Assembly (NCBI GenBank): GCA_964187785.1 | Contig: OZ076413.1 | Location: forward strand, 59,768,001-59,832,000 | Source: Amphiscolops sp. MND2022 | Taxonomy: Eukaryota | Direction: 5' to 3' | Length of the DNA stretch: 64,000 nt | In this document: piece after piece, positions 11-64,000 of the stretch | Layout: every line of letters starts with the position of its first letter | How positions within the stretch are numbered: the stretch's first letter is position 1 | Translations under genes and position numbers: made by a program | The notes under the pieces: generated by a model | Database searches by the model: none | What the model was told of the DNA's origin: nothing | Seen by the model: the letters and a program-made list of their open reading frames with translations, nothing else

Positions 11-1123
11 ATGGTGACAGGAGCCAACCGACAACTCCATAGGCAAAGCTCTCAAAAGTTAAACGACACTCTAGGATCCCGCGCAGACCAAAACACATCA
101 ACATCGACTACAAATCCATTTGACCCAGTCAATCAAATTGCACTTGCAATAGAGAAATTAGCCAACAAAAACACTCCACAATCACTCTTTCATCCAAAAA
201 ATACACTCACGTTTAATGGCAAAAATGAGAAAAATGAACAATTCGAGTACTTTGAAGATCTATTTCATACAACTCTTCGCATGCAACCCAACCTCACTGA
301 GGAGATGAAGGTCAATCATTTCCATGCACACCTCAGAGGTCTGGCACTCAAAACATTCAAAAACATACAAAGAACCCCCAATACAACACTGGAAGACATC
401 TTGAAGGTGTTCCGCAGGAAATATGTAAAACCGGAGTCTAGTGCATCAGCAAAACACAGATTTCATAGACTCTCGTTTCAACCCGAGAACCAAAAACTTC
501 CTGACTTCCTCGAAGAACTCCAGGAAAATGCAGAGAAAGCATTTGGAGAAAACGCACATCAAATGATAGAGAATCTGCTCTACGCAAAGATGCCTCCCCA
601 CCTTAAAAAATCCATCAATCAAGCTTATCTTGCAAATGGTACTTATGATCAAATAGTTAAACATCTTGAACGAGAAATGGAACTTAACGGTCTAGAGGCA
701 GATGAACCCCTCGTCAAAACCCAAATGACTGCTACTAAAAAGGAAGAAAACAATGAGAAAACCAACAAAAAACAAAATGAAAAGGCTAAAAAACAAACCG
801 CAAAAACAGTACCCGATAAAACCCTCAAGAATGATCAATGCCGTTACTGTAAAGAGACAGGTCACATGATGAACTACTGTCCTAAACTAGCCAAACGGCG
901 TAAACTTGAGGAAGATCCAGACGCTGAAAAATGTCATAATTGTAAAACACCAGGACATGACGAAGAAAGCTGTTATTTTGGTGCCAATATGGAAAACCGT
1001 CCACCAAAATGGACCCTCACAGACGCACAAAAGAAAATCATAGAAGCATACAAACAAGCAAAAAAAACAATCAGACCTAAATCAGAAAAACACCAACAAT
1101 CTTCGTCACAGGATTTAAACTAG
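11..1123 (+). CDS. gag: Gag, copy 1 (open 370 aa; probably extended upstream into the LTR)
   Basis: Capsid-like LTFNGK...FEYFEDLF...LRGLA. CCHC knuckles CRYCKETGHMMNYC and CHNCKTPGHDEESC. Ends at slippery TTTAAAC then TAG. Confidence 0.92.
   Translation: MVTGANRQLHRQSSQKLNDTLGSRADQNTSTSTTNPFDPVNQIALAIEKLANKNTPQSLFHPKNTLTFNGKNEKNEQFEYFEDLFHTTLRMQPNLTEEMKVNHFHAHLRGLALKTFKNIQRTPNTTLEDILKVFRRKYVKPESSASAKHRFHRLSFQPENQKLPDFLEELQENAEKAFGENAHQMIENLLYAKMPPHLKKSINQAYLANGTYDQIVKHLEREMELNGLEADEPLVKTQMTATKKEENNEKTNKKQNEKAKKQTAKTVPDKTLKNDQCRYCKETGHMMNYCPKLAKRRKLEEDPDAEKCHNCKTPGHDEESCYFGANMENRPPKWTLTDAQKKIIEAYKQAKKTIRPKSEKHQQSSSQDLN
12..23 (+). promoter_or_regulatory. Primer-binding site TGGTGACAGGAG (again at 1699-1710 and 46711-46722)
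   Basis: TGG directly follows the LTR-terminal CA in both elements. Complementary to a tRNA ending CTCCTGTC-A-CCA; discriminator A is compatible with tRNA-Leu but the identity is unverified. Confidence 0.85.
1114..1120 (+). promoter_or_regulatory. -1 ribosomal frameshift heptamer T TTA AAC (second copy 2779-2785)
   Basis: XXXYYYZ in gag phase immediately before the gag TAG. The -1 frame (FKLETPRLYIK...) leads toward the protease region. Confidence 0.8.
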
Positions 1124-1487
1124 AAACGCCACGCCTTTACATAAAATCACCACACAAAATCAACTCCGCTGATGACTGGCAGCATCAGCCGAACCCAAAA
1201 CCTACAAAAAACATAACACATGAATCTTACCAAACAACACAAAACTTTCAACTCTCAACACAAGAAACTCAACCTGAAGTCACATACGAACTTCTCCGTG
1301 ATGCACCAGACAACTACTTTGTTAAACCACCAACTAACACTGAAAACGACTCAAACCCGGAAACTCACCATGAGTCACCCATTAAAAATCATGTCACCAT
1401 AAAAACTTCTTGAGATGACAGATAAAGTCAAACAGGAGCCAATCTGCAGTAACAAACCCCAGGTCACAAGTTAACGAAACAGAGGAT

Positions 1488-2788
1488 ATGCGACCGTCAG
1501 GATCCAGGAGTAAAGAACCTATAGGAGTTCATGCATCCAACATAGAAAGTTCTGAACCTGAAGATGAGGATAATCCTATTAGAGCGTCCAAAATGACGGA
1601 GTTAAAACATCCTGCGAAACCTTTGTTTCGGAGCGAGTCTGATATAGACGTAACTATACATTCAGATGAAGAGTCCGATATAGAAGAGGATTATCACATG
1701 GTGACAGGAGCCAACCGACAACTCCATAGGCAAAGCTCTCAAAAGTTAAACGACACTCTAGGATCCCGCGCAGACCAAAACACATCAACATCGACTACAA
1801 ATCCATTTGACCCAGTCAATCAAATTGCACTTGCAAAAGAGAAATTAGCCAACAAAAACACTCCACAATCACTCTTTCATCCAAAAAATACACTCACGTT
1901 TAATGGCAAAAATGAGAAAAATGAACAATTCGAGTACTTTGAAGATCTATTTCCTACAACTCTTCGCATGCAACCCAACCTCACTGAGGAGATGAAGATC
2001 AATCATTTCCATGCACACCTCAGAGGTCTGGCACTCAAAACATTCAAAAACATACAAAGAATCCCCAATACAACACTGGAAGACATCTTGAAGGTGTTCC
2101 GCAGGAAATATGTAAAACCGGAGTCTAGTGCATCAGCAAAACACAGATTTCATAGACTCTCGTTTCAACCCGAGAACCAAAAACTTCCTGACTTCCTCGA
2201 AGAACTCCAGGAAAGTGCAGAGAAAGCATTTGGAGAAAACGCACATCAAATGATAGAGAATCTGCTCTACGCAAAGATGCCTCTCCACCTTAAAAAATCC
2301 ATCAATCAAGCTTATCTTGCAAATGGTACTTATGATCAAATAGTTAAACATCTTGAACGAGAAATGGAACTTAACGGTCTAGAGGCAGAACTAACGGTCC
2401 TAAAAAGGAAGAAAACAATGAGAAAACCAACAAAAAACAAAATGAAAAGGCTAAAAAACAAACCGCAAAAACAGTACCCGATAAAACCCTCAAGAATGAT
2501 CAATGCCGTTACTGTAAAGAGACAGGTCACATGATGAACTACTGTCCTAAACTAGCCAAACGGCGTAAACTTGAGGAAGATCCAGACGCTGAAAAATGTC
2601 ATAATTGTAAAACACCAGGACATGACAAAGAAAGCTGTTATTTTGGTGCCAATATGGAAAACCGTCCACCAAAATGGACCCTCACAGACGCACAAAAGAA
2701 AATCATAGAAGCATACAAACAAGCAAAAAAACCAATCAGACTCAAATCAGAAAAACACCAACAATCTTCGTCACAGGATTTAAACTAG
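1488..2788 (+). pseudogene. gag: Gag, copy 2 (frameshifted near 2390; ORFs 1488-2534 and 2531-2788)
   Basis: Same protein as copy 1 with an LTR-encoded N-terminal extension. 32 bp are replaced by 10 bp, shifting the frame before the zinc knuckles. Confidence 0.9.
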
Positions 2789-5700
2789 AAACGCCACGCC
2801 TTTACATAAAATCACCACACAAAATCAACTCCGCTGATAACTGGCAGCATCAGCCGAACCCAAAACCTACAAAAAACATAACACATGAATCTTACCAAAC
2901 AACACAAAACTTTCAACTTTCAACACAAGAAACTCAACCTGAAGTCACATACGAACTTCTCCGTGATGCACCAGACAACTACTTTGTTAAACCACCAACT
3001 AACACTGAAAACGACTCAAACCCGGAAACTCACCATGAGTGACCCATTAAAAATCATGTCACCATAAAAACTTCTTGCGATGACCAAAAACAACCCTTAC
3101 TGGATGAAGACCTCACCGAACATATACAGTTTGACAAAGAACGCAACCTGTCGTATTTACCAATTTCCACCTCTTTAACACTGAAAAGAAAACCCCACAT
3201 GTACTACATACCAATGGATTTCGAAAAACTCACACTTGATGGTCTTATTGATACCGGAGCTCTCACAAGTGCCATATCTGAACAAGACCTCAACAAAATT
3301 AAATTGCTCGCTAGCGAAGCAATCAAAGAAACCGGTCCCCCACCAAACTTGCAAATCATGGTGGCAAACGGCCAATTAGAAGTCCCCATTGGTACCGTTC
3401 TCTTAGAATTTGAAGTGGCTGATTTCTTGTTAAAAGAAAATTTCATAATCATGAAAAACCTGCCAAACCCGCTAATCGGACTGTGTTTCCTTCGCAGAAA
3501 CAACGCAATTTTTGATGTCACACAAGGCATCCTAACCTTCCCCTATCAATGCAACTCAAACCTGACACCCAGACATCCATCCGGAAAGCAACACCATTGT
3601 TTGCTGAAAATAACTACACTCTACAACCAGGCGAAACACTCGCCATAGCAAGCAAAATGCCACATTTGATGGACCATAACGCAACAGGAATCGTCACTCC
3701 ATCACCTCAATTTGAAAACCATGATAGCATTTTCATCACAGCGTCTTTTAGCACAGTCAACAATAACGCTATTGGGTACCAAACTTTTCTGAATTACCCT
3801 ACACGATAACTATCGATACCCATTTAGCTGATTTCAAAATTTTCACTCCCGAACAAATCAAACACATACAGCCTGTTGACCCCGCGATGCTATCCTTCAT
3901 GATACAACATGAGGAAACAACGGATGTATACATAAATGAACTTCTAAAAGTACCACAACCAAACCCTGAACAAGAATCGTACTGGTTTCCTACTCCGGAA
4001 GATCCAGGCGATCCCGCATCTTATACCCCCATACAACAACGTATCTACAATGAACTTCTTGAATTAAAAGAACTTGAAAAACTGAACCCACACGATAACG
4101 AATCATCCAGGACAACATTCCTCTCAAACTTCGACTTGTCCGACACCACCCTCAGCCCAGTCGAACGTCAGGAAATCGAAGAGATTCTCGTCGAATTTCA
4201 CGATATTTTCGCCAGACACCGTTTTGATATAGGTATAAATCGTGAGTTCAAGGTAAAACTAACACCAAATGATGACAGACCAGCATACAGCCAAAGTCTG
4301 CCAACTCCAATCAACTGAAAGATGATATCACAGTAGAACTTGCACTTCTCCACAAATATGGTATAATTACAACTTTACCATTTTCCAAATACGCCAGCCC
4401 AATTTTTGCACAACGCAAACCGAATGGGCACCTCCGACTCCTTGTGGACCTCAGAAAAATCAATAATCTCATCACTGAAGATTATGCAAACAATAACCAC
4501 CCGGTAAGCACCTTATCAGATGCAGCCCAACATATGGCGGGGAAAAAACTTTTCTGCAAATTGGATTGCTCCCAGGCTTACCACTGCCTCCAAATGGCAG
4601 ATTACCAATCAATCCAAATGCTTGCCTTTATTTTTGCTAGCAGAACATTTGCTTATCGCCGTCAAGCCCAGGGGCTCAGCAGATCTCTATCTGCATTTTC
4701 GAGCTTCATGAGAGAATATCTGGATAGAGCAATCAAAGCAGATCAATGTGCCCAATACGTCGACGATATTGGCATAGCAGCAAATGACACAAAACAACTA
4801 TGCACCAATATCAAAACTGTCTTCGAATGCATCCGAAACGCCGGTCTGAAACTCTCCATGTCCAAATGCCATTTCGGAGTTAAACAAGTCGACTTTCTGG
4901 GACGAACAATCACACCTGAAGGAGTGTCTCCGCAAGCGAACAAAGTGAAAGATTTTATCTTAAAACTCCGATTCCCTAAATCCAAAAAGGCGCTACAAAG
5001 GTATATTGGATTCTTAAACTACTACAGGAACTACATACCTCGCCTGTCGGAACGGCTTGCTCCGTTCTTCAAACTTCTCAAAGAAACATCTAAATTCTAT
5101 GTACCAACAAATCTGGTAGAAGATTTCACCAACCTCAATAAACTCTTGGAAAATTCTTGCCGATTAGCGTTAAAACAGCCACTCAAAGACAAACAATTAA
5201 TAGTAATGTCTGACGCAAGCTTTACAGCAGCCGGATATGCAATCATGATAGAAGATGACCCAATCCAGAAACTACAATCAAAACGTAAAACATATGCACC
5301 AATAGCCTTCGGGTCAAAAACCTTCAACCCGACACAAACCAAGATGTCAATTTACGCAAAAGAATTTCTTTCAATATATTTTGCGTTCGTTGAATTTGGA
5401 CACTTGATGTGGGGATCTACTTTCCCAGTCATCGTCTTTACTAATAACAGATCAGTAACCCGATTTTTTCAAGCAAAATTAATTCCTCCAGCCCTCTGGA
5501 ACGCTTGTGATTACGTGCTACAATACAATTTTGTTATTGCCCATGTCGCTGGATCAATGAATACTGCGGCTGATTTCCTCTCAAGAACCGAAGTCAACCC
5601 CACAGAGAAGCTTGAGATGACTCTTCGCAATGATATCCACACAAAAGCCATAGAGGTCAACATTCAATCCTCAGGTATCGTAGACGAAGAACAAATCTAC

Positions 5701-7676
5701 ATACTTCCAGATGATGAGGTTGACGAAAATCAATTATGGCAAGAGAAACACAACGTACGTGAACAAGCACAAAATGAAACACATAATGAACCCGAAAATG
5801 ACGTTAATGAACTTCAACAATTCCACAAACCCACTTCCGGCCTAATCTCCTGTTCATCAGGGCACTTCAAAGACAACGCTCGAATTAGACTTGAACAAAA
5901 TAATGATGTTGTCCTCAGAAACCTACGAGCTAAACTCGAAGGTAACCCCTTCGACGAAAACGAATTAGCATCGGATCACCGATACCAACATTACCTCCAA
6001 AACATCACCAGAATCGAGATAAAACAAGAAGTCCTTACCCGTAGATACTATACGGATACAGGAATAATATCACACTACCAAATTCTACTCCCGAAACAGC
6101 TCCTGAAAGAATTCCTCCACGCCCTACATGGTCACAATTCTAACCACCCAGGAATCACAAAAATGATTCAGGAATCTCGACAAAAATATTATTACCCCTG
6201 TATAGCCAAATACAATAAAAAATGGGTAACAAACTGCCAAACTTGCATCCAAAACAAGCGCATTAACAATGACCTTCTCCGAACCGAACTCCTAAATTGC
6301 CCAGAATGGGATTTAGGGCCAGAGGACATTCTGCAAATGGACATCCTACCGAACCTTCCTACAAGTGGTGGCTATGACCATATTATAACAGCAATAGACG
6401 TCTTCTCGAGATACCTGTTTGCATATCCAGCAACCCGTATTAATGCAACAGCGGTCTCGAAAGTCATTATGGACATTCTATGTAAACACACCTACCTCTC
6501 AACAACCATTATACCAGACTTAGGAACCCAATTCAATGCTCATGAAATCGCTGGTGTGCTTGGAATTGAATTAAAACACGCTACCATGAAGCATGCACAA
6601 ACAATAGGTCTCCTTGAACGAACTCATGCCTCAGTCAAAACACACCTAAAAGCCGCCACAGGCGAGTTTAGGGATAACTGGCATAAATACCTTCCACTGG
6701 CAGTCCTTAATCACAACACGACATACCATGCATCACTTGGTTGTGAACCTTCAAGAGTGTTTCACGGACGTATACCTCATAATATTCTTGATTATAAACT
6801 TGGTTACAACCCAAATCCTCGATATCAACCGCAAACCGATATCGCTGAAGAAGTACAACGCCGAATGCAGATTCTCCTAGACCAAACTAAGAAAAATATC
6901 ATGCAGTCCTATCTTAGATACAAAGCCTACTACGATAGAAAAGCAAAAGCAGCCCCGCTGGAGACTACGGATTACTGCTACATTCTAAACCCAAAAGCAG
7001 ACACCCAAACGACTAAGATTCCGTTCCGTGAATTCAGATGGTGCGGTCCTTATAAAGTCGAAAAAGTTCTCCCTAACAACAATTATATAGTCAAAAGACT
7101 CGGCACCAATAAAACTCAGTTATTACACAGAATTCGCCTACGAAAATTTACACCGCAAGCACCCCTAGCAGACATCTTCGTTCGTGAAACGGACTGGCAA
7201 AAAGATGACCAGATGATAGTCTCACATGACGATCTATATGCCCAATCGTGGAATACGAACTTTGGCCCCAATCCATTTGAGGAAAGCCCTCATGAATCTA
7301 CACTCAATACAGACAAAATAGAATACGTTCCAATCGAAATACCTGAGCAAAACCGCCCCCCTCCCCGAATTCTTCAAAAAACAGCGGGGGGAGCCCAGTG
7401 GAACAAACCACTGCTCCAGAAGTGGAGAATAGAAATATAACCCCACAAGAAATTCCTGATGATACTCCAATTATAGAAGAAACCCATAAAAGTAAAAACA
7501 ATACAACTGAAATAAAAACCCCAGAAAATACCCAAAATGTTCCGAAAAACACACAAAAATCCCCAAAAAATTCACAAAATACCCCATTGCAAGAAGAACC
7601 CATAAAAACTCGTGGCGAAAAATACAACTTACGCCCAACTCCTAACCCCAATTACTCAGACTCATATAGATACTAA
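2779..7676 (+). pseudogene. pol: Pol polyprotein (PR-RT-RNaseH-INT), mildly disrupted; longest open piece 4444-7440
   Basis: Protease LIDTGAL; RT AQYVDDIG; RNase H MSDASF and YAKEFL; integrase HGHNSNH...CQTC, QMDILP, IIPDLG, GLLERTH; GPY motif CGPYKV. Nonsense at 3040-3042 and frame breaks near 3550, 3780, 4315 and 7385. Confidence 0.95.
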
Positions 7677-7878: not shown

Positions 7879-10830
7879 TTAGTTCTTCTTTTCCTTGGAC
7901 GCCTTAGATTTGCTCTTAGCAGCACTTCTTCCTACTCCTTCTTCCGAACAGCGGGAAACGGTAACAGAAACACGCCCCAAAGAAGGCCCTGTTACGGGGG
8001 AACTACTGGAACTGGTAGTTCTACTCTCACTAGGCGACGTCATGTCCAGAAATAAAGGCAAACCTTCCCCTCGAAGCACGGACTTCTTGTAGGATATCTC
8101 CAATTTTCCGAATACAGCACTGCGACGAACTTCACTCCCCTTGAGGAAATTCCACACCGAAAATTTCCTATCGCGAATTAAACTAGGTCCTCGTCCAAGT
8201 AATCTGAACACGCGACTGATAGTTTTCGGACTCCTGTATAAGCTGGAAACGTTGGGAACTGTAACATAAGACAATTGCAGACTCCTCACTACGGAACGGA
8301 AAGAATGATCATCTGATTCCAAGCCAGGAATCGAGACGTGAAACTTAGGAGGTTCGATGACAACAGGCGGCAGGCATAGACACGCATTTCTAAATAATTG
8401 AAGCAACTCAGGACGACTCTGCATTTCATAATGAGAAATGAGGAATTGAACCCAATCAGATCTGATAATTCCACTTTCAGCACGAAGTTTTATAGCGAAT
8501 GATCGGTATTGGCTCACAGCTTTAACCTTATTGCTAGTGGTCATCCATCCACAAGAAACAAAATAACTTGTTAGACTTTCGACAGCAGAGACATAGTTTT
8601 CCTCTGGTCCATCAAGTAAAACAGCATGATCGAATGATGAGAGTCTCAATCAGGCTAGAAGCTTCTTCGAGGGAGTACTGCAAACTGATCACACACTGGA
8701 AACAAACTGAAGTAAACACAAAGAAACAAAAACATCAGGAAAACGAAATTGACGATATAATACCTTGTGCAATTGAGGTAGTGAATGCAACCAGTCTTTA
8801 TCTAGGGCCGTCCTCAATTTCAGCAGGAGGTAATCGAGAATACTTCTGAAATCGTGTCTCTCGATAATTTTGGCAGTTGGTAATGCGAGACACCTCTCGA
8901 ATTCGTCTTCGCCAAAGTTGTTGATGATTATAGGCCGAGGATGCCCAGGTAAAGTCGTTGAGAGACAATGGCTGAGCCGCTCTCCTAACCCAATGAGGCT
9001 GATACATGGGGGCGCTGTCTCAAATAAACTAATGAATGAAGCAACAAGAGATAAGATCTTGCGAGGAATCAGGATTCCTCTTGGTCCAGTTCCAATGCAT
9101 ACCTGATACAGGACATTTCCTGACCAGAAACTGAGATATAAGGTGTTCTCGGTGGGATGGCTCATCAGGGACAGAGAATAGACCCCACTAGCATTTACGT
9201 TGGTCACACAATAGTTGAGCAATTCCGTGAACATGTGAGTGATGATTCCCTGAAAAGAAAACTACGTTCGGACTTGGTAACGATTGAATATGATATCATG
9301 ATTACTCAAAAACTTCTGGTCACATGAATGTCAAATACCTGAAGTAGTATTGTGGGATTGATGAAAATTGAGATCACTTACAAATATGCGGTAAGGACTC
9401 CAATTGAAGGTGATTGCTTGTCCTTCCCCGCCTGAAAATCGGTTGATTTCGTCATAAATGTCAGTCACGCAGGAAATGTCGCCCCCTCTGCGCAACCCGA
9501 TCTCGATGATACAGATCTGTGAGGAAACTGTTTCAGTGGGACTCTTGTCTGTTCCGAAATGTGGCAGTGAGTCTTGTCCTACCAATAGGCGAGAACAGTC
9601 CAATTGGGGGGCGATAGGATATGTATCCCTAGCGATTCTCTTCGCTCCTGCTAGAGCTAGACCCTGTAGTTCACACTCGTCTTTATCGTATAGTGCCATG
9701 CCCGGGGTTTCCATCCTAATTCGGTGTTCCCTAACCAGGTGTGATTCGGTTTTATAATGAGCCATTAACTCTAACACTCCTCGGCTCATAAGGGAGAGTT
9801 CAATTCGGCACACACGGCAACTCCATTTGTAAGGCGTCTTGTCTCGATTGACTGGTCCAGTAGCGGAAAACTTTAGGACAGGGTGCTTGCGAAGCATAGA
9901 CCATTTAAGTGAATAGCGAGGCCTCGGTCGTTTGTTGCAAATAACCGGTGCTTCATTGAGTTCTTGCTCTGAATGGGATATGTTAGGCCCACTATTAGTT
10001 GCATGCTGATCTTCCTCTGGATTACCTCTGGGAGGCTTTTGAAGTGTGTCTTCAACGACCGAGAAAGATATCCCCTGATCGTTTTCAGTTTCAGTCCCAC
10101 CGATGTAAGATTGTGGGAGTTTTTCGATAACGTTTGTTATGGCCACCAGCTCATTTCGTGTATTGTTGACACTCTGAACGTTAGGTCTGTGAACTTCAGT
10201 GGTTTCGGAATCAGTGGGTACCTCATCAGCTTTGTCGTTACTTTTGTTAAGAGAGGCATTATGTTTTTCTGGATCTAGATCAAGTTGTTCAACCAGGGCA
10301 GTTAGAGAAGGTAACAAGAATTGAGTCAACAGAGATTTGCTAGCCTGCTGTTTGGGTAAAGGAACACTAGTCCCTACATTCGGAGCAGTAATAACCTCAG
10401 GAGAAGTATCCATGGTCATAGCATTAACTCCAGATAAATGTGGTTCTACCAGATTTTCATGGATGGAGGCTAAATGTGGAGTATCCTCTTCTTTAGAAGT
10501 TTCTAAATCTTCAGGATTAATGGTAGAATCCAATAAATCAAAGTTAACTTGAGCCGGACTATGGACGATACCATCTGGATCAATTGTATCCTCAACTGTA
10601 TCAACAACAGTTTCTCCTTGGGGTTCTTCTAATTCAACTGCCGCACTGTCCGATGCAATAGTGGAGCTACCAATGGTGATAACAGAAATATGCTCTGGAT
10701 TCGCGGTGGGGCTTGGAACAGTAGGCTGTCCTGGTGGAATGACCTCCAAGGGTGTATAAATCTTGGTAGGGGAACGAACTGGTGATTTTTCAGTAGCCCC
10801 AAGTTCAACTAAAACAAATAAATTTGACAA
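7879..10830 (-). CDS. Antisense spliced cargo gene A: disordered N-terminus, BED-like Zn finger, degenerate hAT-transposase-like domain (one apparent frameshift near 8650)
   Basis: Three long minus-strand ORFs (9331-10830, 8689-9234, 7879-8649). In-phase GT-AG intron 9381-9250 (PYRIF|GIITH) and GT-AG intron 8763-8696. Zn-finger-like WSCRVC...MAHYKTESH. Colinear homolog in element B. Confidence 0.8.
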
Positions 10831-12483: not shown

Positions 12484-13506
12484 ATGAACAGTCTACAATT
12501 CAATTTTGATGAAGATTCTTTGTACTCACCGATATCGCCAGATGTCATTGACATATCCAGCGATTCGGACAATGCCTTTCCCGTCGCTCCTGGGGATGTC
12601 GGCCAGCTCGAAGAGAGGTTCCGAATAAACCCAGTCGGAAGCAATTTGATGTCAGCTTTCTTGGGCTCAACATTAGCTTCATTATACCCTGACGCAACAA
12701 TGACAGCAGATCAAGGAGAAGAGATGACAACCACGGGGACAGAACTTGAAAAAGACCTGGCTGAGCTCATAGCGGACCCACCAGAAGCTCAAATGGATTC
12801 ACCAGGATCGTTTGTGGCCAGCGAGTTTGAAGAGGAGAATCTGTTCCCCTGGACTGTGAGTAACACCCAGAATACGAGCGTAAACAGCTTTGGTCGTCCG
12901 ATTGCCGCCATCCCTCCAAATGTGAGAGCGGACCGTGAAGCAAGAGGGATATTACCACGACCGATACCCAATTATCCACCCAACCATAGTCCCGAGTCTG
13001 CAGCTTTTCAGCAAACCCAGGTTAGGGAACCTATGGAACGAAATAGGCAAGATAACAATATGCAACCAAATGGTGGGAATCATAATGCTGTCCAGGGATT
13101 CAACTTGTCGCCGATGCTCTTCCCTGTTCCTTTGAGGGGGACAGCAGCAGATACTTTTCTAGCTCCTGTACAGCCCCTGACACAGATAGGTTTTCCGTTT
13201 AGTGCGACCCATAGCACGAACCTTATCCTAATCCCTGCTCAAGAAAGACAGAGTATCAGGCTCTTGCCAACAGTCATGCCCAACGTTGCTGGGTATTGTG
13301 ACATTTGCGGAAAATGCTACGACCAGATAGCATTGGAGACGCTTGGTGAGTACCTGGTTGCGACTGAGTACGAGAATGAAACAGTCAAAGAACGGGCAAT
13401 TCGATCAAGAGCCTTTATTCATGGCTTTGAGGCCTCACTGTTCCTCTTCAAAAACGCGGGACTGTCACATCCAGCTAGATGTGATGGTTCCGTGGTGCAG
13501 CAGTAA
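12484..13506 (+). CDS. Sense orphan accessory ORF of element A (340 aa)
   Basis: Uninterrupted ORF; acidic, Pro-rich, disordered N-half with DVIDISSDSD; C-terminal YCDICGKC and a helical segment. No family recognised. Confidence 0.7.
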   Translation: MNSLQFNFDEDSLYSPISPDVIDISSDSDNAFPVAPGDVGQLEERFRINPVGSNLMSAFLGSTLASLYPDATMTADQGEEMTTTGTELEKDLAELIADPPEAQMDSPGSFVASEFEEENLFPWTVSNTQNTSVNSFGRPIAAIPPNVRADREARGILPRPIPNYPPNHSPESAAFQQTQVREPMERNRQDNNMQPNGGNHNAVQGFNLSPMLFPVPLRGTAADTFLAPVQPLTQIGFPFSATHSTNLILIPAQERQSIRLLPTVMPNVAGYCDICGKCYDQIALETLGEYLVATEYENETVKERAIRSRAFIHGFEASLFLFKNAGLSHPARCDGSVVQQ

Positions 13507-13746
13507 AGAGGAACGAGTGATGAGACCCTTGATACAAACATTTCAAAACTCTAAAAGACTCATTTCTAAACAATCTCTTTTGATGAAGTCATGTAATTTA
13601 TTTGTTTGCCTTGTCTCTTAAATTTATTTAAGGGTTCGATTGTAGTCCTTAAGGTGCTTCTTTGATTGCATTAAACCCATTAAATAATAAGGCACGTGCT
13701 GAATTGTTACATAAGATTGATTAAGTCTACCATCATCCAAATCATC

Positions 13747-13992
13747 ATACATCATGATACGGTATTTTGAACATCTGATATGCGGTAAGAAGCAGTTTTA
13801 CAATATACATCATGCGGCATTATGCGCAAAAAGGTATTCAGCATATACGGCAACATGCGGTTTTAGATTTGTCATTCATGCGGTAACATACGCTTTTTAC
13901 TATTATCACTATTCATTATCATGCATTTTGAATAGGCTTAGTTATACGTTAACATACGGTATTAGGTGATGTGTATATGCGGCATTATACGG
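13747..13992 (+). repeat. Second 33-bp-period ATRCGG array, in the putative U3
   Basis: Unit starts about 13747, 13780, 13812, 13845, 13878, (13911), 13944, 13977, with paired motifs 10 bp apart. Nine exact ATRCGG. Shares AGGCTTAGT..ATACG..GTATTAGG with 11750-11790. Confidence 0.85.
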
Positions 13993-14415
13993 TTTTCGTC
14001 CAAAATGGGAACTTTTGAATGTCATGTATCTATGCATCATTTGAACAGTGTTTGTAGCACCTAATATATCATTTTGCAGCATTTTCCTAGGGTCTTTAAG
14101 CTTTGTAGTCATAATTCCGTGACTATTGGAAAGCTATATATAGGATGAAGTAATGTTGATGTCATTCTATTTTTATGATTCCAGGACCCAATGATGTTTA
14201 GAAAAAGTGCTTGTCATCGTTTTATTTTTTGATTGAAGAAAAGGTTTGTAATAGAGACTCAGTTGAAAAATAACCTTCTCAAAGTGCAGTTGACCCAATT
14301 CACTGAACCCTTTAAAACACTTCCTGATTTGCTTTCCTGACTTTGGATTGTTTTTCAATTTGGATTCTAATTCAAATTCTTCCCCAATAAACCTGATCGT
14401 TTTGATTGAGCAAAG

Positions 14416-14979
14416 ATGGGAAACAAGAGAAATAGAAGATCGAGAAGACTAGAAATCCCGTCTCCTGAAAGAGAAGGGAATAGGACTCTAGTTGATTCTC
14501 CAGAGACAGGTATTTAACTAATTCTAACTCAAATGTTGATGAGAATTTAGGTGGGCTTAACCTGGGAAGTCAACTTGTTGAACCAAGCCAAACTAGTTCT
14601 GAAATACAAGCTTGGACTGAGATTTTCGAACGAAAAAACAATGATAGGATAGAAAAAATGAGAGAAGAAATGGAGAATAAACTAGATACTATTCTGAAAG
14701 AGATAAAGTCAAACAGGAGCCAATCTACAGTAACAAACCCCAGGTCACAAGTTAACGAAACAGAGGATATGCGACCGTCAGGATCCAGGAGTAAAGAACC
14801 TATTGGAGTTCATGCATCCAACATAGAAAATTCTGAACCTGAAGATGAGGATAATCCTATTAGAGCGTCCAAAATGACGGAGTTAAAACATCCTGCGAAA
14901 CCTTTGTTTCGGAGCGAGTCTGATATAGACGTAACTATACATTCAGATGAAGAGTCCGATATAGAAGAGGATTATCACA
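14416..14979 (+). pseudogene. LTR-encoded Gag N-terminal extension, 3' LTR copy (about 188 codons, one frameshift near 14515)
   Basis: ATG 14416 (MGNKRNRRSRRLE...). The frame from about 14515 runs open to the LTR end (...EEDYH), the same frame that enters gag at 1698. Confidence 0.75.
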
Positions 14980-44441: not shown

Positions 44442-46710
44442 TGTCACGACCCGCACCCGGTCGGTGTTCCTACTGTCACGAAGGAATACATAACTGCAAC
44501 AAGGGACTTGGTCATGGGAGAAACTTTTAAAACGTAAGATGTTTAAATTCTACTTAGAGTAGAGCTAAATAACAACCGAAATTTTCACGCAACAAAATAG
44601 ACAGAAGGACGACGTAACGTTTGGTTTGGTCATTTCCAACCTAATGAAACTCCCGGCCTATTGACTTTCCGCGTGACCTTTTTTCACTTCCGGCCTGGTC
44701 GACAGAAAGTTTGCATTCCAATCTAAATAACAAAACAGAAAATAATCTTAAAATGAGAAATTAGTTCTTTGATTCCTCACCCTGGAACGAAAATACCGAG
44801 ACAAAAATTAATCCCGTGGTCAATTCCGAGCTCATACGCTCTAAAATGAAAAATACATACAAAGTAATATAGCTGAGTATACTAGAATAGCTGTCAAAAT
44901 TCACTTAAAATGCATCGGGGCAATTTAAACAAATAATCACAACGTTATTGCTGCGTCAATCAATAAGAGTCCGCAAAGAAAGCTTTATACTCTTACGAAC
45001 CAATAGCAATGCTTCACAGCTAAAAGAGTTTTCCTTACCGCCTTCTCAACGAGATAGCGACGCTGCTAACCAGCCTATATTACCGTGCTCAAAATAGAAC
45101 GAACGATTTAATGACGTGACAATAAATCATTTTGGAATGAACTTTACCAGCAAGTGACGTACCAGCTACGTCACGCAGTTGGTCAGCAACAGTCCACTAA
45201 AATACACACGTCACTGCTGCGTCACAGCTGAAGGTTGAAAATGAACGACAGTTTATCTGTACCGGCTGAAGTGAGAAAATTTTAAACACTTTTGTGCATT
45301 TTGCACACTTTTAGGGAAGCTGTACTGTAAAATAGGAAACCAAATGATCTCAAACTTCAGTGTGTGGTAAAAATCCTTTTTTGAATCGCTACAAAATCCA
45401 AACGAAACGAAATGATTGGAATAAAAATTTGGAAATTACGTTGACCAAAGGAAGCTACAATCTCATTTAGGATGGCATTATTTCAATGGAAATTGCTCAT
45501 TTTTTAAATTTAACATCACAGTGCATGACGTAAGGTCAACGTGTTTTCCTCGAATGGAAAGGTGCAAAATTGCTATTAATTCATTGATACACATGTAATT
45601 AGAATCATTTGCTTTTGCTTTTGCAGTTTTATATTTTTGTTTCACTACTGTTGTAATACTGTGTTAGTTTATACTAAAGGAAGCCTCATGATCTGGCGAA
45701 CTTATGCTCATGAAAGTTCTTTATTATTACGAGTGACTTTCGTCAGACAACAGACAATGTTGTAAATTTTGAATATGTACATCTCAGGCCTCTTAGCATC
45801 TTTTTCCTTATTATTCCCTCAATCTCAAATATGAAATTGATATATTTTTTCGTCTCAATTGCGAGGCTTATATTTTGAGTGTCATGATTTATTCAACAAA
45901 ATTCGATTCCCAAATTCCAGTTAGTTGAACAATTGTTGACGCAGGCGTGCCTTTGCCGCTAAAACAACAGGCCGACTTTTCTTTTGCCGTAATTTTAACT
46001 CTCAAACAGGAAGTGATTAAGGATGAACAAAAATGTTTTCAGAAATAACGACGTAAGCATGGCGCATCTCGGAATTCAAATAACTGATTTGGGAACGCAG
46101 GGTTGAAAAAATCTGAATCACTCAAGATTCCTTATGAACAAACGCGATTTTTAGGATACCTAGGAATTTTTAGGTGAGGAACAAATGATGCTAAGAAGGT
46201 ATAAAGATGTAGACTTTTAGAGTGAGTTCAGTTAATGTTTCTGTTGTTCAACCTGAATATTTGTCGTTTGCAAAACGTAAAACAAAATATTTTCTTCGAA
46301 GAATGCACTATTACCGAAGACTTTCATTCTAAAGATGACAACTAGAAGTCAGTAAAGGAAAACAGCTGAGGAGCTAGTTTCTAGAGACGCAGACACTCCC
46401 ATAACTGGAGTCAATTCTTAGGAAAACATGGTAGAATGTCCCAGTAAATCACCCAGAGTGCAACCTGAAATTTTAGACGAGATAAAAACGTCGCTTAGAA
46501 AAGAGATTATGTCTGATCTTTCAAAAATTCTTACTGAAAACCAATAAGAAATGCAAACATTATTGGCACCTACCACCAAAATTCAAAGTAACCACCTTAG
46601 CGTTGAAAACTCCGATTCTGAAACGGAAATTGCACTTCCTGCCATCACTTCTACATCCGTTAAAAATAAGGCGACCATGCGTAAAAACACCCTGACAGTT
46701 AGTCGTAACA
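44442..46710 (+). repeat. 5' LTR of element B (2269 bp)
   Basis: Direct repeat of 57977-60214; followed immediately by the PBS. Confidence 0.95.
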
Positions 46711-53393: not shown

Positions 53394-56300
53394 CTATTTC
53401 AACCTATGAAATACATCAGGGTCCACTTTTTTTACAATTTTCTTCTTCTTACTCTTGAAAGAGGCGGGCTGTTTTGACCCACCCTGACTATTGGTCTGAT
53501 TTCCTCCTTTTGACGCTGCAGCTTGTTGTTTCTTCTGCCTCACTACTGCGCTCAGGCCAACGTCCACTCTCCATTTCGAAGCACTACTCACACTACTGCC
53601 TGTCCCGCTACCTCCAGAACTTTCACCAAGTTAGATAAGACAAATAGTTTTGTTACTCTCTGTATAGAAAGTCTCGCCAGCTCTACGTCGCTCCTCAATA
53701 AAATCCACATAGAGGTTCTTGTGACGATGAACAAACTCATCATAACTAGTAGCACAGAATCTGGACCATTAATCGAAATCTGCAGTCACAAAATTCTGCC
53801 CCGGCAATAGCTCCACGTACTGTATCCAAAGTAGGGATAGTGAAAAAAGATTGATGCGCATACCCCGGGCACAAAACATATGATTGCACCAACAGCAAGC
53901 AATCATGGAAAACTTTTGGGTCGATTGCACAACCTTTCAACTCCAACGTAACAACAGGATGGATACTTTGAGGTATATTAATCACCAGGCAACATAATTG
54001 GAACACGCTGAGCAATCGATGCCTCGACTGAAAGCTGAAGTTTTGCATCAGAAAACTAATAACATCAGGGATATCGCAGGCAGAACGTCCAGAACCCACA
54101 TGTTGACGCCGCTTCTCTACCACATAGCTACTGTACTTTTTAACAGCTGCTTTACTTTCGAGATAACATCACACTTCCTCAGTAACGCGCACAGGTCGGA
54201 AAAGAGCCCAAACACTGTACTGTCATCGCCTTCAAGCATTATCTCAGGGCAAAAACTATAGAGACCTCTTGAAAATTCTGAAGAAGTACAGGGTCTCTCC
54301 AGAAGCAGATAAATAAACCTATCGATGAAGTCTTTGCAACGGGTGCGAAACTCTTTAACATCACTCGTTGAAAGTCGTACTCAGAACGTCCTTGGAGATA
54401 CTTTGCGAAGTTACAATGAACTGAAACACAATATCATAACTACGACGCAACATGAACGCAAACCCAAGAGATCACCCCAATACTCACATGTGTCAAGCAA
54501 CAACTGCAAAAACCCAAAACGAAACACGATGAGTGTGTCAGCGAAGATGTACCAATCTGTCTTACGCAACTGAAACGAACACAACTAAGTGACTGAAAAT
54601 TAAAAAAGAAGGAACAACAAGAGAACGACCAAGACTAACACTGTCGACCCTATCCTTGACATGAAGGAGATCAGTATTCCGGATATATGGTCGAATTGAA
54701 GGCCACAGTTCAGTCAAATCTGACACCACAGAACGAAGGTTACGGAAGGGAACAGATCCTTGACAAAAGCACCTTCGCAACAATGTTTTGTCTTCATTCC
54801 AATCTTCATAGAAGATTGCTCCGCATCCGTAAAATAACAAAGAGAGTGACAACCTCGATCATGCCAAATACATCTTGGTGTGCTTGATGGAACACCTCCA
54901 GAAACAGATTTTCGCCGAAACTTTGCTGGATAGCGAAACGACGCCCATCAGCCCGCTCGTCGCCAAGAACCCGCAGCAATGAAAGACTGATACCACGAAC
55001 TGCCACAGGAAGTTGCTGACCCTCCACACTTTCGATGACGCGCGACAATGGTTTCAACTCTGACAACGGCATTGGGCGTTCCAGGCTTTCGCTGCCCACG
55101 CACACTTTCTTCAGGTGACCATCCTCCCAGAAGACGACGTAACATCGCTCACAAGAATCGTCCTTCTCGAACTGCACACTATAGTCTTTATCACTAGAAG
55201 CACCAGCAAGGACAAGACGTACCACGCGTGGAGCGAGACCGTGACACAACAAGGCCTGGAACAGAAAACCTCATGAAAGATCCAAAAAAAAGAAGAATAC
55301 CACAATACAATAACAAGAATCAAAAAGGCCATCAAAGTCAGAAGTAATTATGAAACGCACAAAACTACAACTAAACAACGTTTCCGAACGGCTCCAATTT
55401 AGTTTGAACTCAGGCTCACGCGTTCCCAGCGCAACACAAAAGTGACTCCAGAGTCGGCGGACCAAGTCAAAGTCACCACCACTGCGCAGGACATCACAAA
55501 GGCTTGAGCTCAGGGTCATAAACGGAACTTTTGAGTCTACTTTCGAATATTTCGGCAGTAAATCTTCAAGGAACGGGTATCCTTCCGCAAGATCCTCAAT
55601 AGGTCGCACGCTATACTCAGTCCGTTGTTCAGCAGTCAGTTCCGTCCGTTCCATCAGACTATTGTAAATTGGGATGCCCATGTGAACCCTGTATGTAACG
55701 TCACGGACCCAATGCCCCTCGGAACCAACATGTCGTTTGAATTCAGTTGCCCCCCGTGTCGCCATCGACACGTCGCGCCGACAAACTTTGCAAAAAAAGA
55801 AGCGACCAATGCCACTCTTGGGGCCAGACACAAATTCGGGGTACAAGGGGTCGAGACTCAGCATCTGTTTACGCAAATAGTGACGACTACTATATTTGCG
55901 CTCTTTCTGTTTGTCCGCAAACTAACTCTCCACCTACTGAGTCAATTCGTTGAATCCTAGAACAACACACAATCCATCCAATAAAAAACGCCGAAGAGGA
56001 AGACAAAAAAATGTGACTACTCACCAGTCTGGATCGTACGGACTGTACGACTCTCAACGTCCTCAACGACTCGTCGACTAAGTGTGGCAACGTCCTGAGG
56101 ACTTAATCCAGTGTGACCAATGGCAGTCGCAAATGCGTCATCAGAACCTGATCACCAAATGAGTAACACCATGTACGAAAATAGACGGAATGAAGAATAA
56201 ACAAAACTAACTGGTCCACCCATTCCGTAATGCACCAGCAAGTAATGGCGTCGCATCTCCAGTCTGATCAGGGGGTGTTTTGAAAGACACTGAACGTTTG

Positions 56301-57976: not shown

Positions 57977-60214
57977 TGTCACGGCCCACTCCCGGTCGGC
58001 GTTCCTACTGTCACGAAGGAACACACAAATGCAACAAGGGACTTGGTCATGGGAGAAACTTTTAAAACGTACGATGTTTAAGTTCTACTTACAGTACAGC
58101 TAAATAACAACCGAAATTTTCACGCAACAAAATAGACGTAAGGACGACGCAACGTTTCGTTTGGTCATTTCCAAATTATTGAAGCTTCCGGCTTTTTAAC
58201 TTTCCGCGTGACCTTTTTTCACTTCCGGTCTTTTCGTCAGAAAGTTTGCATTCCAATCTAAATAACAAAACAGAAAATAAACCTAAAATGAGAAATTAGT
58301 TCTTTGATTCCTCACCCTGAAACGAAAATACCGACACAAAAATTAATTCCGTGGTCTCTACGGAGCTCATACGATCTAAAATGAAAAATACATACAAAAT
58401 AATATAGCTGAGTTTACTAGAATAGCTGTCAAAATTAACGTTATGGCAGCGTCAATCAATAAGAGTCCGCAAAGAAAGCTTTATACTCTTACGAACCAAT
58501 AGCAATGCTTCACAGCTAAAAGAGTTTTCTTTACCGCCTTCTCAACGATATAGCGACGCTGCTAACCAGCCTATATTACCGTGCTCAAAATAGAACAAAC
58601 GATTTAATGACGTGACAATAAATAATTTTGGAATGAACTTTACCAGCAAGTGACGTACCAGCTACGTCACGCATTTGGTCAGCAGCAGTCTACTATAATA
58701 CACATGTCACTGCTGACTGCTGAGTCACTGCTGAAGGTTGAAAATGAACACAGTTTATCTTGTACTGGCTGAATTGAAATTTTTCTTAGCACTTTTGTGC
58801 ATTTTGTACAATTGTAGGGAAGCTGTACTGTAAGATAGGAAACCAAATGATCTCAAACTTCAGTGTGTGTTAAAAGTCCTTTTTTGAATCGCTACAAAAT
58901 CCAAACGGAATGAAATGATTGGAATAAAAATTAAGAAATGACGTTGACCAAAGGAGGCTATAATCTCAATTAGGATGGCATTATTTCAATGGAAATTGCC
59001 GTTTTTGTCCTATTTAACATCACAATGCATGCCGTAAGGTCAACGTGTTTTCCTCGAATGGAAAGGTGCAAAGTTGCTATTAATTCATTGATACACATGT
59101 ATTTAGAATCATTTGCTTTTGCTTTTGCAGTTTTATTTTTTTGTTTCACTACTGTTGTAATTTTGTGTTAGTTTATAATAATGGAAGCCTAATGATCTGG
59201 CGAAAATATGCTAATGAAAGTGCTTTAATATTACGAGTGACTTTCGTCAGACAACAAACAAAGTTGTAAATTTTGAATATGTACATCTCAGGCCTCTTAG
59301 CATCTTTTTCCTTATTATTCCCTCAATCTCAAATATGAAATTGATATATTTTTTCGTCTCAATTGCGAGGCTTATATTTTGAGTGTCATGATTTATTCAA
59401 CAAAATTCGATTCCCAAATTCCAGTTAGTTGAACAATTGTTGACGCAGGCGTGCCTTTGCCGCTAAAACAACAGGCCGACTTTTCTTTTGCCGTAATTTT
59501 AACTCTCAAACAGGAAGTGATTAAGGATGAACAAAAATGTTTTCAGAAATAACGACGTAAGCATGGCGCATCTCGGAATTCAAATAACTGATTTGGGAAC
59601 GCAGGGTTGAAAAAATCTGAATCACTCAAGATTCCTTATGAACAAACGCGATTTTTAGGATACCTAGGAATTTTTAGGTGAAGAACAAATGATGCTAAGA
59701 AGGTATAAGTATGTAGAATTTTAGAGTGAGTTCAGCTAATGTTTCTGTTGTTCAACCTGAATTATTGTCGTTTGCAAAACGTAAAACAAAATATTTTCTT
59801 CGAAGAATTCACTATTACCGAAGACTTTCTCTTTAAAGATGACAACTAGAAGTCAGAGAAGGAAAGCAGCTGAGGAGCTAGTTTCTAGAGACGCAGACAC
59901 TCCCATAACTGGAGATAAGTCTGAGGAAAACCTAATAGCAGGTCCCAGTAAATCACCAAGAGTGCAACCTGAAAATTTAGACGAGATAAAAACGTCGCTT
60001 AGAAAGGCGATTATGTCTGATCTTTCAAAAATCCTTGCTGAAAATCGAGAAGAAATGCTAAGATTATTGGCACCTACCACCAAAATTCAAAATAACCACC
60101 TTAACGTTGAGAACTCGGATTCTGAAACGGAAAATGCATTTCCTACCATCACTTCTACACTCGTTAAAAATAAGGCGACCATGCGTAAAAACACCCCGAC
60201 AGTTAGTCGTAACA
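57977..60214 (+). repeat. 3' LTR of element B (2238 bp)
   Basis: TGTCACGG...GTCGTAACA followed by the TSD. Confidence 0.95.
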
Positions 60215-61031: not shown

Positions 61032-64000
61032 TTATTCGGGAAGGTAAAGGACGGGAGCGAGTTTAATCACTGGGCGTATATGGTTACCAGATACTGTTCT
61101 GACTTCAGCGGACCTGGCGACGGCGTCTGTGCCGAAGTTAAGCCGTACGACACGAGCTAATGGAGAGTGCCCTCTAGGTGATGTCGGTTCAACAATCCAC
61201 ACGAGATCTCCGGTCTTAAGATCTCTGTTTGGGTGCGATGACCACTTCGAACGGCGGTTCAGAGTGGGAACGTATTCTCTTAACCACCTGTTCCATATTG
61301 TATCGGAATAAGCTTGCGCTCGAGCGTAACGCTTGCGATGGTCGATGTCTGCTTGCTGATGCGAAGGCAGTACTGAACTTGAAGTTCCATGTTGAAAATG
61401 ATTTGGAGTTAAGGCGTCCAAATCGGTTGCAACTGCACTAGCAGGTACTAACGGTCGTGCATTCAAACTTTGTTCCACGAGGCAGAACGTAGTTGCAAGG
61501 ATTTCGTCTGTCAGACGTCTATTTCCGATGACAGCGTAGAACACGTGCTTGAAACTACGTACTAAACGTTCCCATACACCTCCATGATGCGGAGCACTGG
61601 GTGGGTTAAATTTCCACTGGATTACTTTCTTGACAAGTGATTCAGTGAGGACTTGTTGATTCCACTTTCTGACGTTCTGTAACAGTTCTTTGTCACTTGC
61701 AACAAAGTTGGTGCCGTTGTCGGACCAGAGAACTGACGGAGTGCCTCGTCGGGCAGCAAATCGTTCAATTCCCATCACACAACTACTAGAGTCCATTGAC
61801 GGCACAACTTCAAAATGGACGGCTCGAGTAGTCAGGCAAGTGAAAAGGAATCCCCAGCGTTTCTCAGTAGAACGTTTCACGGACACGTAGAAGGGACCAA
61901 AGTAGTCGATTCCTGTGTTGCGGAATGGAGGTTCTCTGTATGCAAGTCTTTCCCGGGGAAGATCGGACATCATGGGAGTTAACGTCTCAGCCTTGCGCTT
62001 ACGACAGGTGATGCACCTGGATACAATTGATCTCAAGGTTGGTCTCAATTTGACGATTGCGTATTGTTGCTGGATCAAAGCCCTCAAGTATTCAACACCC
62101 TGGTGGCATTGATTAATATGAAAGTTCTCAAGGAACAACCGAACTAAGGGATGACGGCTATCTAGTAGAATTGGGTGTTTCATGTCAAATGAAGCAACAT
62201 CTAGCTGTTTTGTTCGACCAGAAGCTCGCAGGAAACCATTAGGTCCAATGAAAGGGGATAATTCAACAATTTTAGAAGACTTGCTGAGGGGGAGCGACTT
62301 CAACAAGCATTTCTTTTCAGTGTTAAAAGACTCGAGTTGTACCAGAGGGAACAATCTCTGTTGGGCATTGTCGAGTTCAGTTGGATCTGTAATAAATCCA
62401 GTGTCAGTGCGCTTGGATTCGTTCTTGGGAAGGAGTCGCAACATGTAAGCCACAATGCGCAGAAGTTTATCATAAGAACTGTACTTCTCCCACTCGAAAG
62501 TTGTCGCAATTTCGGTTGCTGTTGCAGAATATGAAGTAGACTGATATTCATTGGTTTCGATAACTTCAGTGGAATGAGCGCCTTTGTTAAGCTTTACTTT
62601 CTGACGAAATTCTTCTGGGGGTTTGAACGGGAAGTCGGATGTTTTTAGAAAGTCCGGTCCTGTCAGCCAACAACTGTTCAAAAGATCAGTTGCAGACATT
62701 CCACGTGTGCCCGCATCAGCCGGGTTGTGAGCTGTAGGGACGTAGTGCCACTCATCAACAGTTGTTAAGTCTAGAATTTCGCATACTCGGTTAGCAACAA
62801 AGGTGGGTTGCTTTTCTAAAGAAGTTAACCACTGAAGCACAGTTGAACTATCGCTTCACATGAAAGTTCTGTCTATCTTCAAAGACAGTGCACGGAGGAC
62901 CTCTGCGCGAAGTCGTGCTGCAAGTAATGCGGCTTGTAGCTCCAACTTTGGAATAGTTAGTGCCTTCATAGGAGCCATTCTTGCTTTTCCAAAGACGAAA
63001 GCTAGCTGCGTCACAACACCGTGGTCGTTTATTAGTTTTCCGCGCAAGAAAGCGATTGCGCTGAAAGCATCTTGTGAGCTATCACCAAACATGTGCAGCT
63101 TACTTGTTTCAACCGTTTGACAGAAGTATCTTCTTGGTATGGTAATTTCATTCAAAGTTGACAACTCTTTGCTCCATTCCAAGAACTTTGTTACAAAATC
63201 GTCTGGCAAGTTGTCGTCCCACTGCTGGCCACTGAGCCTCCAAATGTCTTTCAAAAGCAGGCGCGCTTTGATGGTGAACGGCGCAACGAGACCAATTGGG
63301 TCGTATACAGCGGATACCAAACTCAGAACAACCCTTTGAGTGACATTTCGGTCGGTGTTTGGACTTGTTCCTCTGCTAACAACTAATGTGTCTGTTGAGT
63401 GATTCCATTTCAGTCCAAGAACGTGTGAGAATTTCTCTGCAGTTGGAAGTTCTTTCTCTTCCGTGGTTCTGTTGTCGCTGCTCGGATCCACTTCGATGGG
63501 GATGCTTGGTACATTAGACACAAACTTTGTCAGTTTAAACCCTCCCAAAGCAAGCATTTTAACAAGATCCTTCGCTTTGTTCGAGGCTTCGATAGCTGTT
63601 GGACTTGATTCGAGGTAATCGTCCATATAAAAGTTGTTGTGAACGCTTCGTGCTGCATCTGGGAAGTTGGCTTGGTTATCTGTGGCAGTTCGTTTCAGTG
63701 CGTAGTTAGCGCATGTTGGCGAATCTTTAGAGCCGAAAATGTGTCGAACATACTCAAAAACAGCAACTTCAGCAGCTGGGTGCTCCCGTCACAAAAATCG
63801 AAGTGATGGTCTGTCATGTGGGATAACTCCAACTTGGAGAAACATTCCTTCGATGTCCGCAGATACAGCAAAAGGATATTGACTGAAACGGAAAAGATTG
63901 TGAATTAAGCTCTGCAGCAAATCTGGTCCTGCTAGAAGAGCACTGTTCAAGGACTGACCATGAAATTTTGCGGCTCCATTAAGAATCCTACGGACTTTGC
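61032..64000 (-). mobile_element. pol: BEL/Pao retrotransposon pol (RT-RNaseH-INT), cut by the window end; one premature stop at 62856-62858
   Basis: FYMDDYL; Pao-type LHMFGDSSQDAF and TIPKLELQAA; INT H..QCHQG..CITC, GIDYFGP, WSDNGTNF, GVWERLVRS. ORFs 62856-63626 and 61032-62840 share one frame. Confidence 0.95.

Follow-up and report, generated by a model that had tools for sequence, protein, structure and literature searches.

In Ty1 of Saccharomyces cerevisiae, Gag starts in LTR-derived RNA and the primer site lies inside the GAG ORF, according to an extract of the source (PMC4974528), and a further extract gives the 5' UTR as 53 nt (PMC3592414). A longer LTR-encoded segment has been described for Tca5 of Candida albicans, a Ty5-like Ty1/copia element, whose ORF opens at nucleotide 382 of a 685-bp LTR and thereby covers ~100 LTR codons; the section on Tca5 in that review calls the start site unclear (PMC4139406). 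Most Ty3/gypsy Gags begin with the capsid, with Cer1 of C. elegans as an exception that carries a large N-terminal domain, as set out in the excerpt of PMC10309623 used here, in which no statement was found that this domain is LTR-encoded. Coding sequence at the other end of an element has been reported for V-clade1 of pufferfish, where pol overlaps the 3' LTR, so that the LTR doubles as protein code (PMC11117352, in part). LTRs and primer sites are usually treated as non-coding. HIV nef and MMTV sag overlap the 3' LTR. An exact-phrase search of the open-access literature (that is, outside subscription journals, Repbase reports and supplements) yielded no description of a Gag start inside the LTR of an animal gypsy element, and none for gypsy Gag was found in the portions covered of PMC4402516, PMC13524379, PMC2678813, PMC8278194, PMC12992720, PMC2238898, PMC4202319 and PMC3601003.

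The window, i.e. the whole stretch of 64,000 nt that was analysed, contains two LTR retrotransposons, A and B, both of which belong to Ty3/gypsy (Table 1). They have TG...CA LTRs with target-site duplications, as do eight of ten further elements, the pol domains follow the gypsy order (Pfam, 3199-3645 and 4534-7437), a 12-13-nt complement of a tRNA adjoins the 5' LTR, and Gag combines a capsid fold with a CCHC nucleocapsid (Pfam, structure match, Atlas); only short G-rich runs are present where a polypurine tract is expected before the 3' LTR. The 5' LTR of element A lies upstream of the window (G000:C5:59763136-59764659), is 98.5% identical to the 3' LTR and shares with it the flanking duplication ATTAC, and the LTR pair of element B is 91.6% identical. 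In the eight further elements a second LTR copy ends exactly at the primer junction and a 5-bp target duplication is present, while of the other two one LTR pair ran past the fetched stretch and one was without a match (the ORF count of L074 was left out of this ten-element check, owing to an alignment-overhang offset). The primer corresponds to host tRNA-Leu(CAG), which ARAGORN called in two of six loci taken from a pattern with 857 genome matches. tRNA-Leu-type 3' ends, belonging to the predicted primer tRNA, also form a dense tandem array with a spacing of about 300 bp at G000:C8:35587799-35639269 and beyond. The original prediction had noticed that the end of the LTR and the primer site together read MVTG, and this is borne out: TGGTGACAGGA(G) follows the LTR-terminal A at positions 11/12, 1698/1699 and 46710/46711.

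Table 1. Features of elements A and B in the window (all coordinates are window positions).
Feature	Position	Strand	Basis or remark
Element A, internal gag of tandem unit 3: 370 codons from MVTG, capsid and two CCHC knuckles, ending on slippery-type G GAT TTA AAC	11..1123	+	capsid fold taken from a relative
Element A, last 279 bp of LTR, in tandem unit 4; 93 open codons in Gag frame	1420..1698	+	98.9% identity to 14701-14979
Element A, internal gag of tandem unit 4; frameshift after 278 codons	1698..2534	+	
Element A, primer-binding site, 12-nt complement of host tRNA-Leu(CAG) 3' end including CCA; with A1698 reads ATG GTG ACA GGA G	1699..1710	+	
Element A, pol, broken: protease, RT, RNase H, integrase (Ty3/gypsy order)	3199..7440	+	
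Element A, 3' LTR (TGTCA...TCACA, 1517 bp), followed by ATTAC	13463..14979	+	LTR pair comparison
Element A, TATA box, 281 nt before LTR ATG; initiator-like TCATTC ~29 nt downstream	14135..14142	+	
Element A, AATAAA, 30 nt before LTR ATG	14386..14391	+	not conserved across relatives
Element A, putative LTR-encoded Gag N-terminal ORF, 3' LTR copy, broken by 7-nt gap near 14513	14416..14978	+	
Element B, 5' LTR (2269 bp), preceded by target-site duplication CGAGC	44442..46710	+	
Element B, TATA box; initiator-like TCAGTT 30 nt downstream, 105 nt before LTR ATG	46200..46205	+	
Element B, LTR-encoded ORF, 5' copy, 125 codons with three in-frame stops (46353, 46419, 46545)	46335..46709	+	
Element B, primer-binding site, 13-nt complement of tRNA-Leu(CAG); MVTG with A46710	46711..46723	+	
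Element B, 3' LTR, followed by CGAGC	57977..60214	+	
Element B, LTR-encoded ORF, 3' copy, 125 open codons and 28 more into flanking DNA	59839..60213	+	

Judged from sequence, the LTR ORF is very probably the translated N-terminus of Gag. A Gag start deep in the LTR, with a primer site that is itself coding, had been proposed in the original prediction, and the conserved frame, purifying selection and a TATA box further upstream strongly support it; taken together, the earlier observation was partly confirmed and its interpretation partly supported. Transcription would start ~30 nt after the TATA box, near 14164 in A and 46230 in B, inside the LTR and upstream of the LTR ATG, so that the ORF would be located in R/U5 and copied into both LTRs via a minus-strand strong-stop DNA as long as ~820 nt in A and ~480 nt in B. 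One long Gag would then be translated from the LTR ATG across the LTR end, over the tRNA-Leu primer site and on into the capsid, with Pol presumably produced by -1 frameshifting at the end of gag. In the LTR replication scheme, U3 derives from the 3' LTR and is absent from the RNA ahead of the primer site; together with a selected frame that is locked to Gag, this implies that the ORF must lie in R or U5.

Of 48 copies, 38 have a TATAWA motif at a distance of 100-300 nt ahead of the LTR ATG, compared with 4 of 48 in a control window (three of 51 copies, in which the first Met was evidently wrong, were dropped). The distance is family-specific, with the box at about -280 in A and at -115 to -165 in two other groups; it is present in only 2 of 10 copies of one cluster and in neither of two singleton families. 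Initiator-like motifs were counted in 28/48 copies without a control and carry little weight. The AATAAA had been located correctly by the original prediction, which had taken it as compatible with an ORF in U5, but as a marker of U5 it is not supported: the motif is unconserved and lies within 60 nt of the ATG in only 11 of 48 copies, five of them close A-subfamily relatives, with 0/48 and 4/48 in controls. One genome search for retrocopies returned no match with an A-tail within 30 nt after the A-family AATAAA, which is uninformative, as few retrocopies of this kind are to be expected. Between the inferred start and the LTR ATG, family A carries 2-4 short ORFs (6-13 codons), which count against the simple picture because a scanning ribosome must pass them; an intron in the 5' UTR or trans-splicing could strip them from the RNA. 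In L005, L030, L095 and L141 a pyrimidine run ending in AG, reminiscent of a splice acceptor, is found just before the LTR ATG.

The LTR-encoded segment of each family starts out basic, with 3-7 Lys/Arg in residues 1-20, contains polar and acidic linkers and is poor in aromatic residues. The AlphaFold2 model, based on 32 natural A-family Gags, contains one helix in this segment (residues 61-103; pLDDT of the block 58-83) and is weak as a whole (mean pLDDT 46), and the segment is predicted to be disordered but for this one long helix. Capsid folds are matched after the primer site, from about residue 220 onwards (RSV capsid, 239-416, Z 8.9; copia capsid, 332-418, Z 9.1), with Z 9.1, rmsd 2.3 and 85 aligned for the capsid C-terminal domain, so that the LTR-encoded segment sits in the matrix position. 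With its basic N-terminus, one long and probably amphipathic helix and acidic and polar linkers, it would fill this position, probably serving RNA, membrane or nuclear targeting as well as oligomerisation. Pfam matched gag to Retrotrans_gag (E 9e-4) and zf-CCHC (E 4e-3), both below the curated cut-offs, and Gag scored 0.93-0.94 to gag/CCHC clusters in Atlas. For the LTR-encoded segment Pfam gave no family and the best Atlas score of 0.76 is not meaningful, while a sequence search of the PDB matched only the zinc knuckle and Foldseek, in which the LTR part was searched within the whole model, returned nothing at E 0.001 or better, although the 30 matches listed were all capsids. With the LTR-encoded domain itself as query, 336 representatives reach E 0.001 or lower. 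No similarity was detected between the LTR parts of A and B (E 0.53), and those of some other groups show weak similarity.

The junction would be translated as a fixed (D/N/H/Y)-M-V-T-G linker read from the att end and the primer site, the codon before MVTG being GAC, AAC, CAC or TAC at 89 of 90 sites. Whether the ATG of this linker serves as a start bears on a reading in which two Gag isoforms are made, namely the long form starting at the LTR ATG and a short one of capsid and nucleocapsid starting at MVTG, by leaky scanning, a second start or internal entry. Such a short form would add to the long Gag and not replace it, and we regard its existence as rather unlikely. The ATG is formed at 7527 (94%) of 7993 exact primer-site matches in the genome, which directly follow CA, the 343-411 codons after MVTG hold all of the capsid and nucleocapsid, and its +4 position is always G; a purine at -3 is as frequent for this ATG (29/48 copies) as for the LTR ATG (26/48), which counts against the reading of a long Gag. 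However, the ATG is forced by the att end (..ACA) plus the primer site, so that the conservation of MVTG is no evidence of protein function, -3 is C throughout the A family, and 16 ATGs precede MVTG on the inferred RNA of an A copy. Downstream, slippery-type heptamers end most of the gag frames examined, which suggests that Pol is made by a -1 frameshift at the end of gag. This leans on the rules known for retroviral slippery sites. In the A-family element L086 (G000:C1:3823873-3826886), the LTR ORF and MVTG run via an internal deletion into the pol frame, giving 504 codons.

The long Gag, translated from the LTR ATG, predicts a frame that stays open up to the primer site. At least 100 open codons precede MVTG in its frame at 68 of 90 primer sites, compared with 0/90 and 0/90 in the other sense frames, and the antisense frames were stop-free at 0, 4 and 0 of these sites, which are the first 90 of 100 listed on contig C1 and were unselected. 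They fall into 37 DNA clusters, 25 of which contain an open copy. In the 51 copies whose frames are open for long stretches on either side, the LTR-encoded part spans 103-216 codons, and their internal Gags form groups that are mostly 25-47% identical to each other. The best 120 homologs in the protein database, which may derive from the same or a close organism (ENA records), include 116 with MVTG and 100 with at least 150 residues ahead of it. In the A family 22 of 30 LTRs are open for 190-192 codons (the best 30 matches fetched, with 40 scored of 1788 candidates), and in the B family at least 125 codons are open in 7 of the 27 LTRs that reach the LTR end, three of 30 matches without it having been left out. 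Like the count at the 90 primer sites, these numbers lie well outside what chance would give. For the two elements themselves the predicted ORFs need amendment. About 188 codons had been assigned to element A from the copy at 14416; the true 5' LTR copy (L002) is indeed open, with 190 codons running into gag, but the 14416 copy measures 563 nt, which is not a whole number of codons, and is thrown out of frame by its gap. In element B the exact length of 125 codons stands, with 375 nt in both LTRs, but the 5' copy that would feed Gag is interrupted by stops and only the 3' copy is open. Next to the 3' LTR of element B, ORFs at 61032-63626 (+) resemble pieces of RT, RNase H and integrase, putatively of the BEL/Pao type.

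Besides conservation of the frame, the original prediction had named dN/dS as a test, and both came out in its favour. The median pairwise dN/dS (Nei-Gojobori) of the LTR part is 0.12-0.27 in seven of eight groups, the eighth being saturated; internal gag gives 0.05-0.20 in six groups, and four B-family LTRs give 0.16-0.28. The dN/dS set comprises 40 of the 51 copies, chosen for open frames, with pairs that are not independent and seven near-identical pairs skipped. Since this choice and the shared history of the copies bear on the values, the 30 A-family loci were also all compared with a single reference in a DNA-guided test, in which substitutions by codon position amount to 227/231/463 in the ORF vs 461/382/354 upstream. 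The sole indel shared within the ORF is 6 nt long, compared with none of six upstream being a multiple of three, while all five private ORF indels are frameshifts, as expected from decay after insertion. By these sequence measures, the LTR-encoded part evolves as protein.

Selection could also have acted mainly on a separate accessory protein made from transcripts of 3' or solo LTRs, with the fusion to Gag being incidental. No primer site follows 1372 of 2003 A-type LTR ends, and the ORF is kept open in 3' LTRs and in at least one solo LTR, L022 (G000:C4:62224169-62224861, flanked by the duplication CCCGG), where 192 codons are open and the frame continues for 31 codons into flanking DNA. Yet the ORF lacks a stop codon of its own and terminates wherever the random flanking DNA provides one (after 1-108 codons in the copies examined), it keeps a fixed phase relative to gag in families with internal Gags as diverged as given above, and its private indels are frameshifts without exception. 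Moreover, according to the established replication scheme, 3' and solo copies leave no descendants for the LTR ORF and cannot account for selection. This explanation is highly improbable. That the open frame is a by-product, whether of base composition, of RNA structure or of an antisense gene, is less credible still, although the ORF region is of low complexity and Pfam finds no family in it. In the Gag frame the last 100 codons contain 0.010 stops per codon, compared with 0.113 and 0.071 for the two remaining sense frames and 0.035-0.067 for antisense, the depletion begins at the family-specific Met, and the excess of third-position changes goes along with near-saturated dS, so that on sequence grounds the by-product reading is largely refuted.

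The long Gag starting in a genuine LTR is to be distinguished from the situation at 1420..1710, the stretch in which the original prediction had seen the Gag start. Its open codons do run into MVTG, but it is the LTR tail of a tandem unit and not the 5' LTR, and the tail (1420-1698) holds neither a promoter nor a start ATG. Within element A, four tandem units of 1665-1687 bp, each composed of the 279-bp LTR tail and ~1.4 kb of gag, span G000:C5:59764381 to window position 3084 and are 97.2-99.4% alike. A 22-nt gap is common to units 1 and 4 and absent from 2 and 3, which is odd for simple serial duplication. The array represents either a real rearrangement or a mix of haplotypes in the assembly. 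An internal duplication or assembly artefact in place of an LTR thus partly applies to 1420-1698, but is refuted for the family, and has next to no chance of being the general explanation, given that A, B and the eight further elements have genuine LTR pairs that end in TG...CA and are flanked by target duplications of 5 bp.

Up to a third of the protein would be lost in an annotation that lets Gag begin behind the primer site. The locking of the integrase end and primer site into one frame across many families offers a natural series for separating constraint at the DNA level from that at the protein level, and for asking how translation and priming compete on one RNA. It further predicts thousands of leftover LTRs with open N-terminal exons, a possible route to copy-number control or new genes. 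At the opposite priming end, element A has a sense ORF of 340 aa without a Pfam match (12484-13506, +) that crosses the weak polypurine tract and continues for 13 codons within the 3' LTR. In the same phase, at least 110 codons are open upstream in 12 of the 13 A-family 3' LTRs with a found start, and 161-238 codons are open upstream of the 3' LTR in five of nine other elements; both priming ends may be coding. Apart from the ORF in the window, the loci noted for this layout are L159, L163, L165, L169 and L173. Antisense ORFs at 7879-10419 (-) and 55271-55864 (-), between pol and the 3' LTR of A and B, encode zinc-finger-like CxxC...H...H patterns with a weak C2H2 match. A speculative and on balance doubtful extension is that an animal gypsy lineage has moved a Gag domain in matrix position into the LTR, perhaps also translating through the plus-strand priming end. 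The 3' and solo LTRs (more than 1,300 in family A) would then be portable units of promoter, start codon and a stop-less exon of 100-216 codons, either making shortened N-terminal pieces of Gag that hold back the element's own assembly, or fusing with host DNA and so seeding new genes.

Compared with the described systems, the layout is of the Ty1 type, with an ORF that is continuous from the LTR through the primer site and, in the elements here, under selection. Since the integrase follows RNase H, the elements are not Ty1/copia members, so that the layout works like that of Ty1 and Tca5 without belonging to either. Ty1 is copia-type and primed by initiator tRNA-Met, whereas the elements here are gypsy and use tRNA-Leu, and its primer site at nt 94-104 leaves, by our arithmetic, ~13 codons before it, compared with 103-216 here. 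The original prediction had called the segment far larger than precedent, which holds against Ty1 but not against Tca5, whose ORF lies ~300 nt inside the LTR in the section consulted (PMC4139406); with this ~100-codon inset in print, the size seen here is not unprecedented. Tca5 is, however, one low-copy copia element, and that review section mentions no selection test for it, whereas the present layout extends over several families of a gypsy lineage with ~7,500 primer sites, has longer insets and keeps gag and pol in different frames. Cer1, compared by description alone, resembles these elements as a gypsy Gag with a large domain in matrix position, but differs in that, in the excerpt consulted, its 5' UTR comes after the 492-bp LTR, with a tRNA-Pro primer site adjoining (PMC10309623). 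V-clade1 pol, nef and sag overlap the 3' LTR without making the primer site coding, as happens in the elements described here. The principle is known from Ty1 and Tca5; the novelty lies in its scale, in its occurrence in a gypsy lineage and in the evidence for selection.
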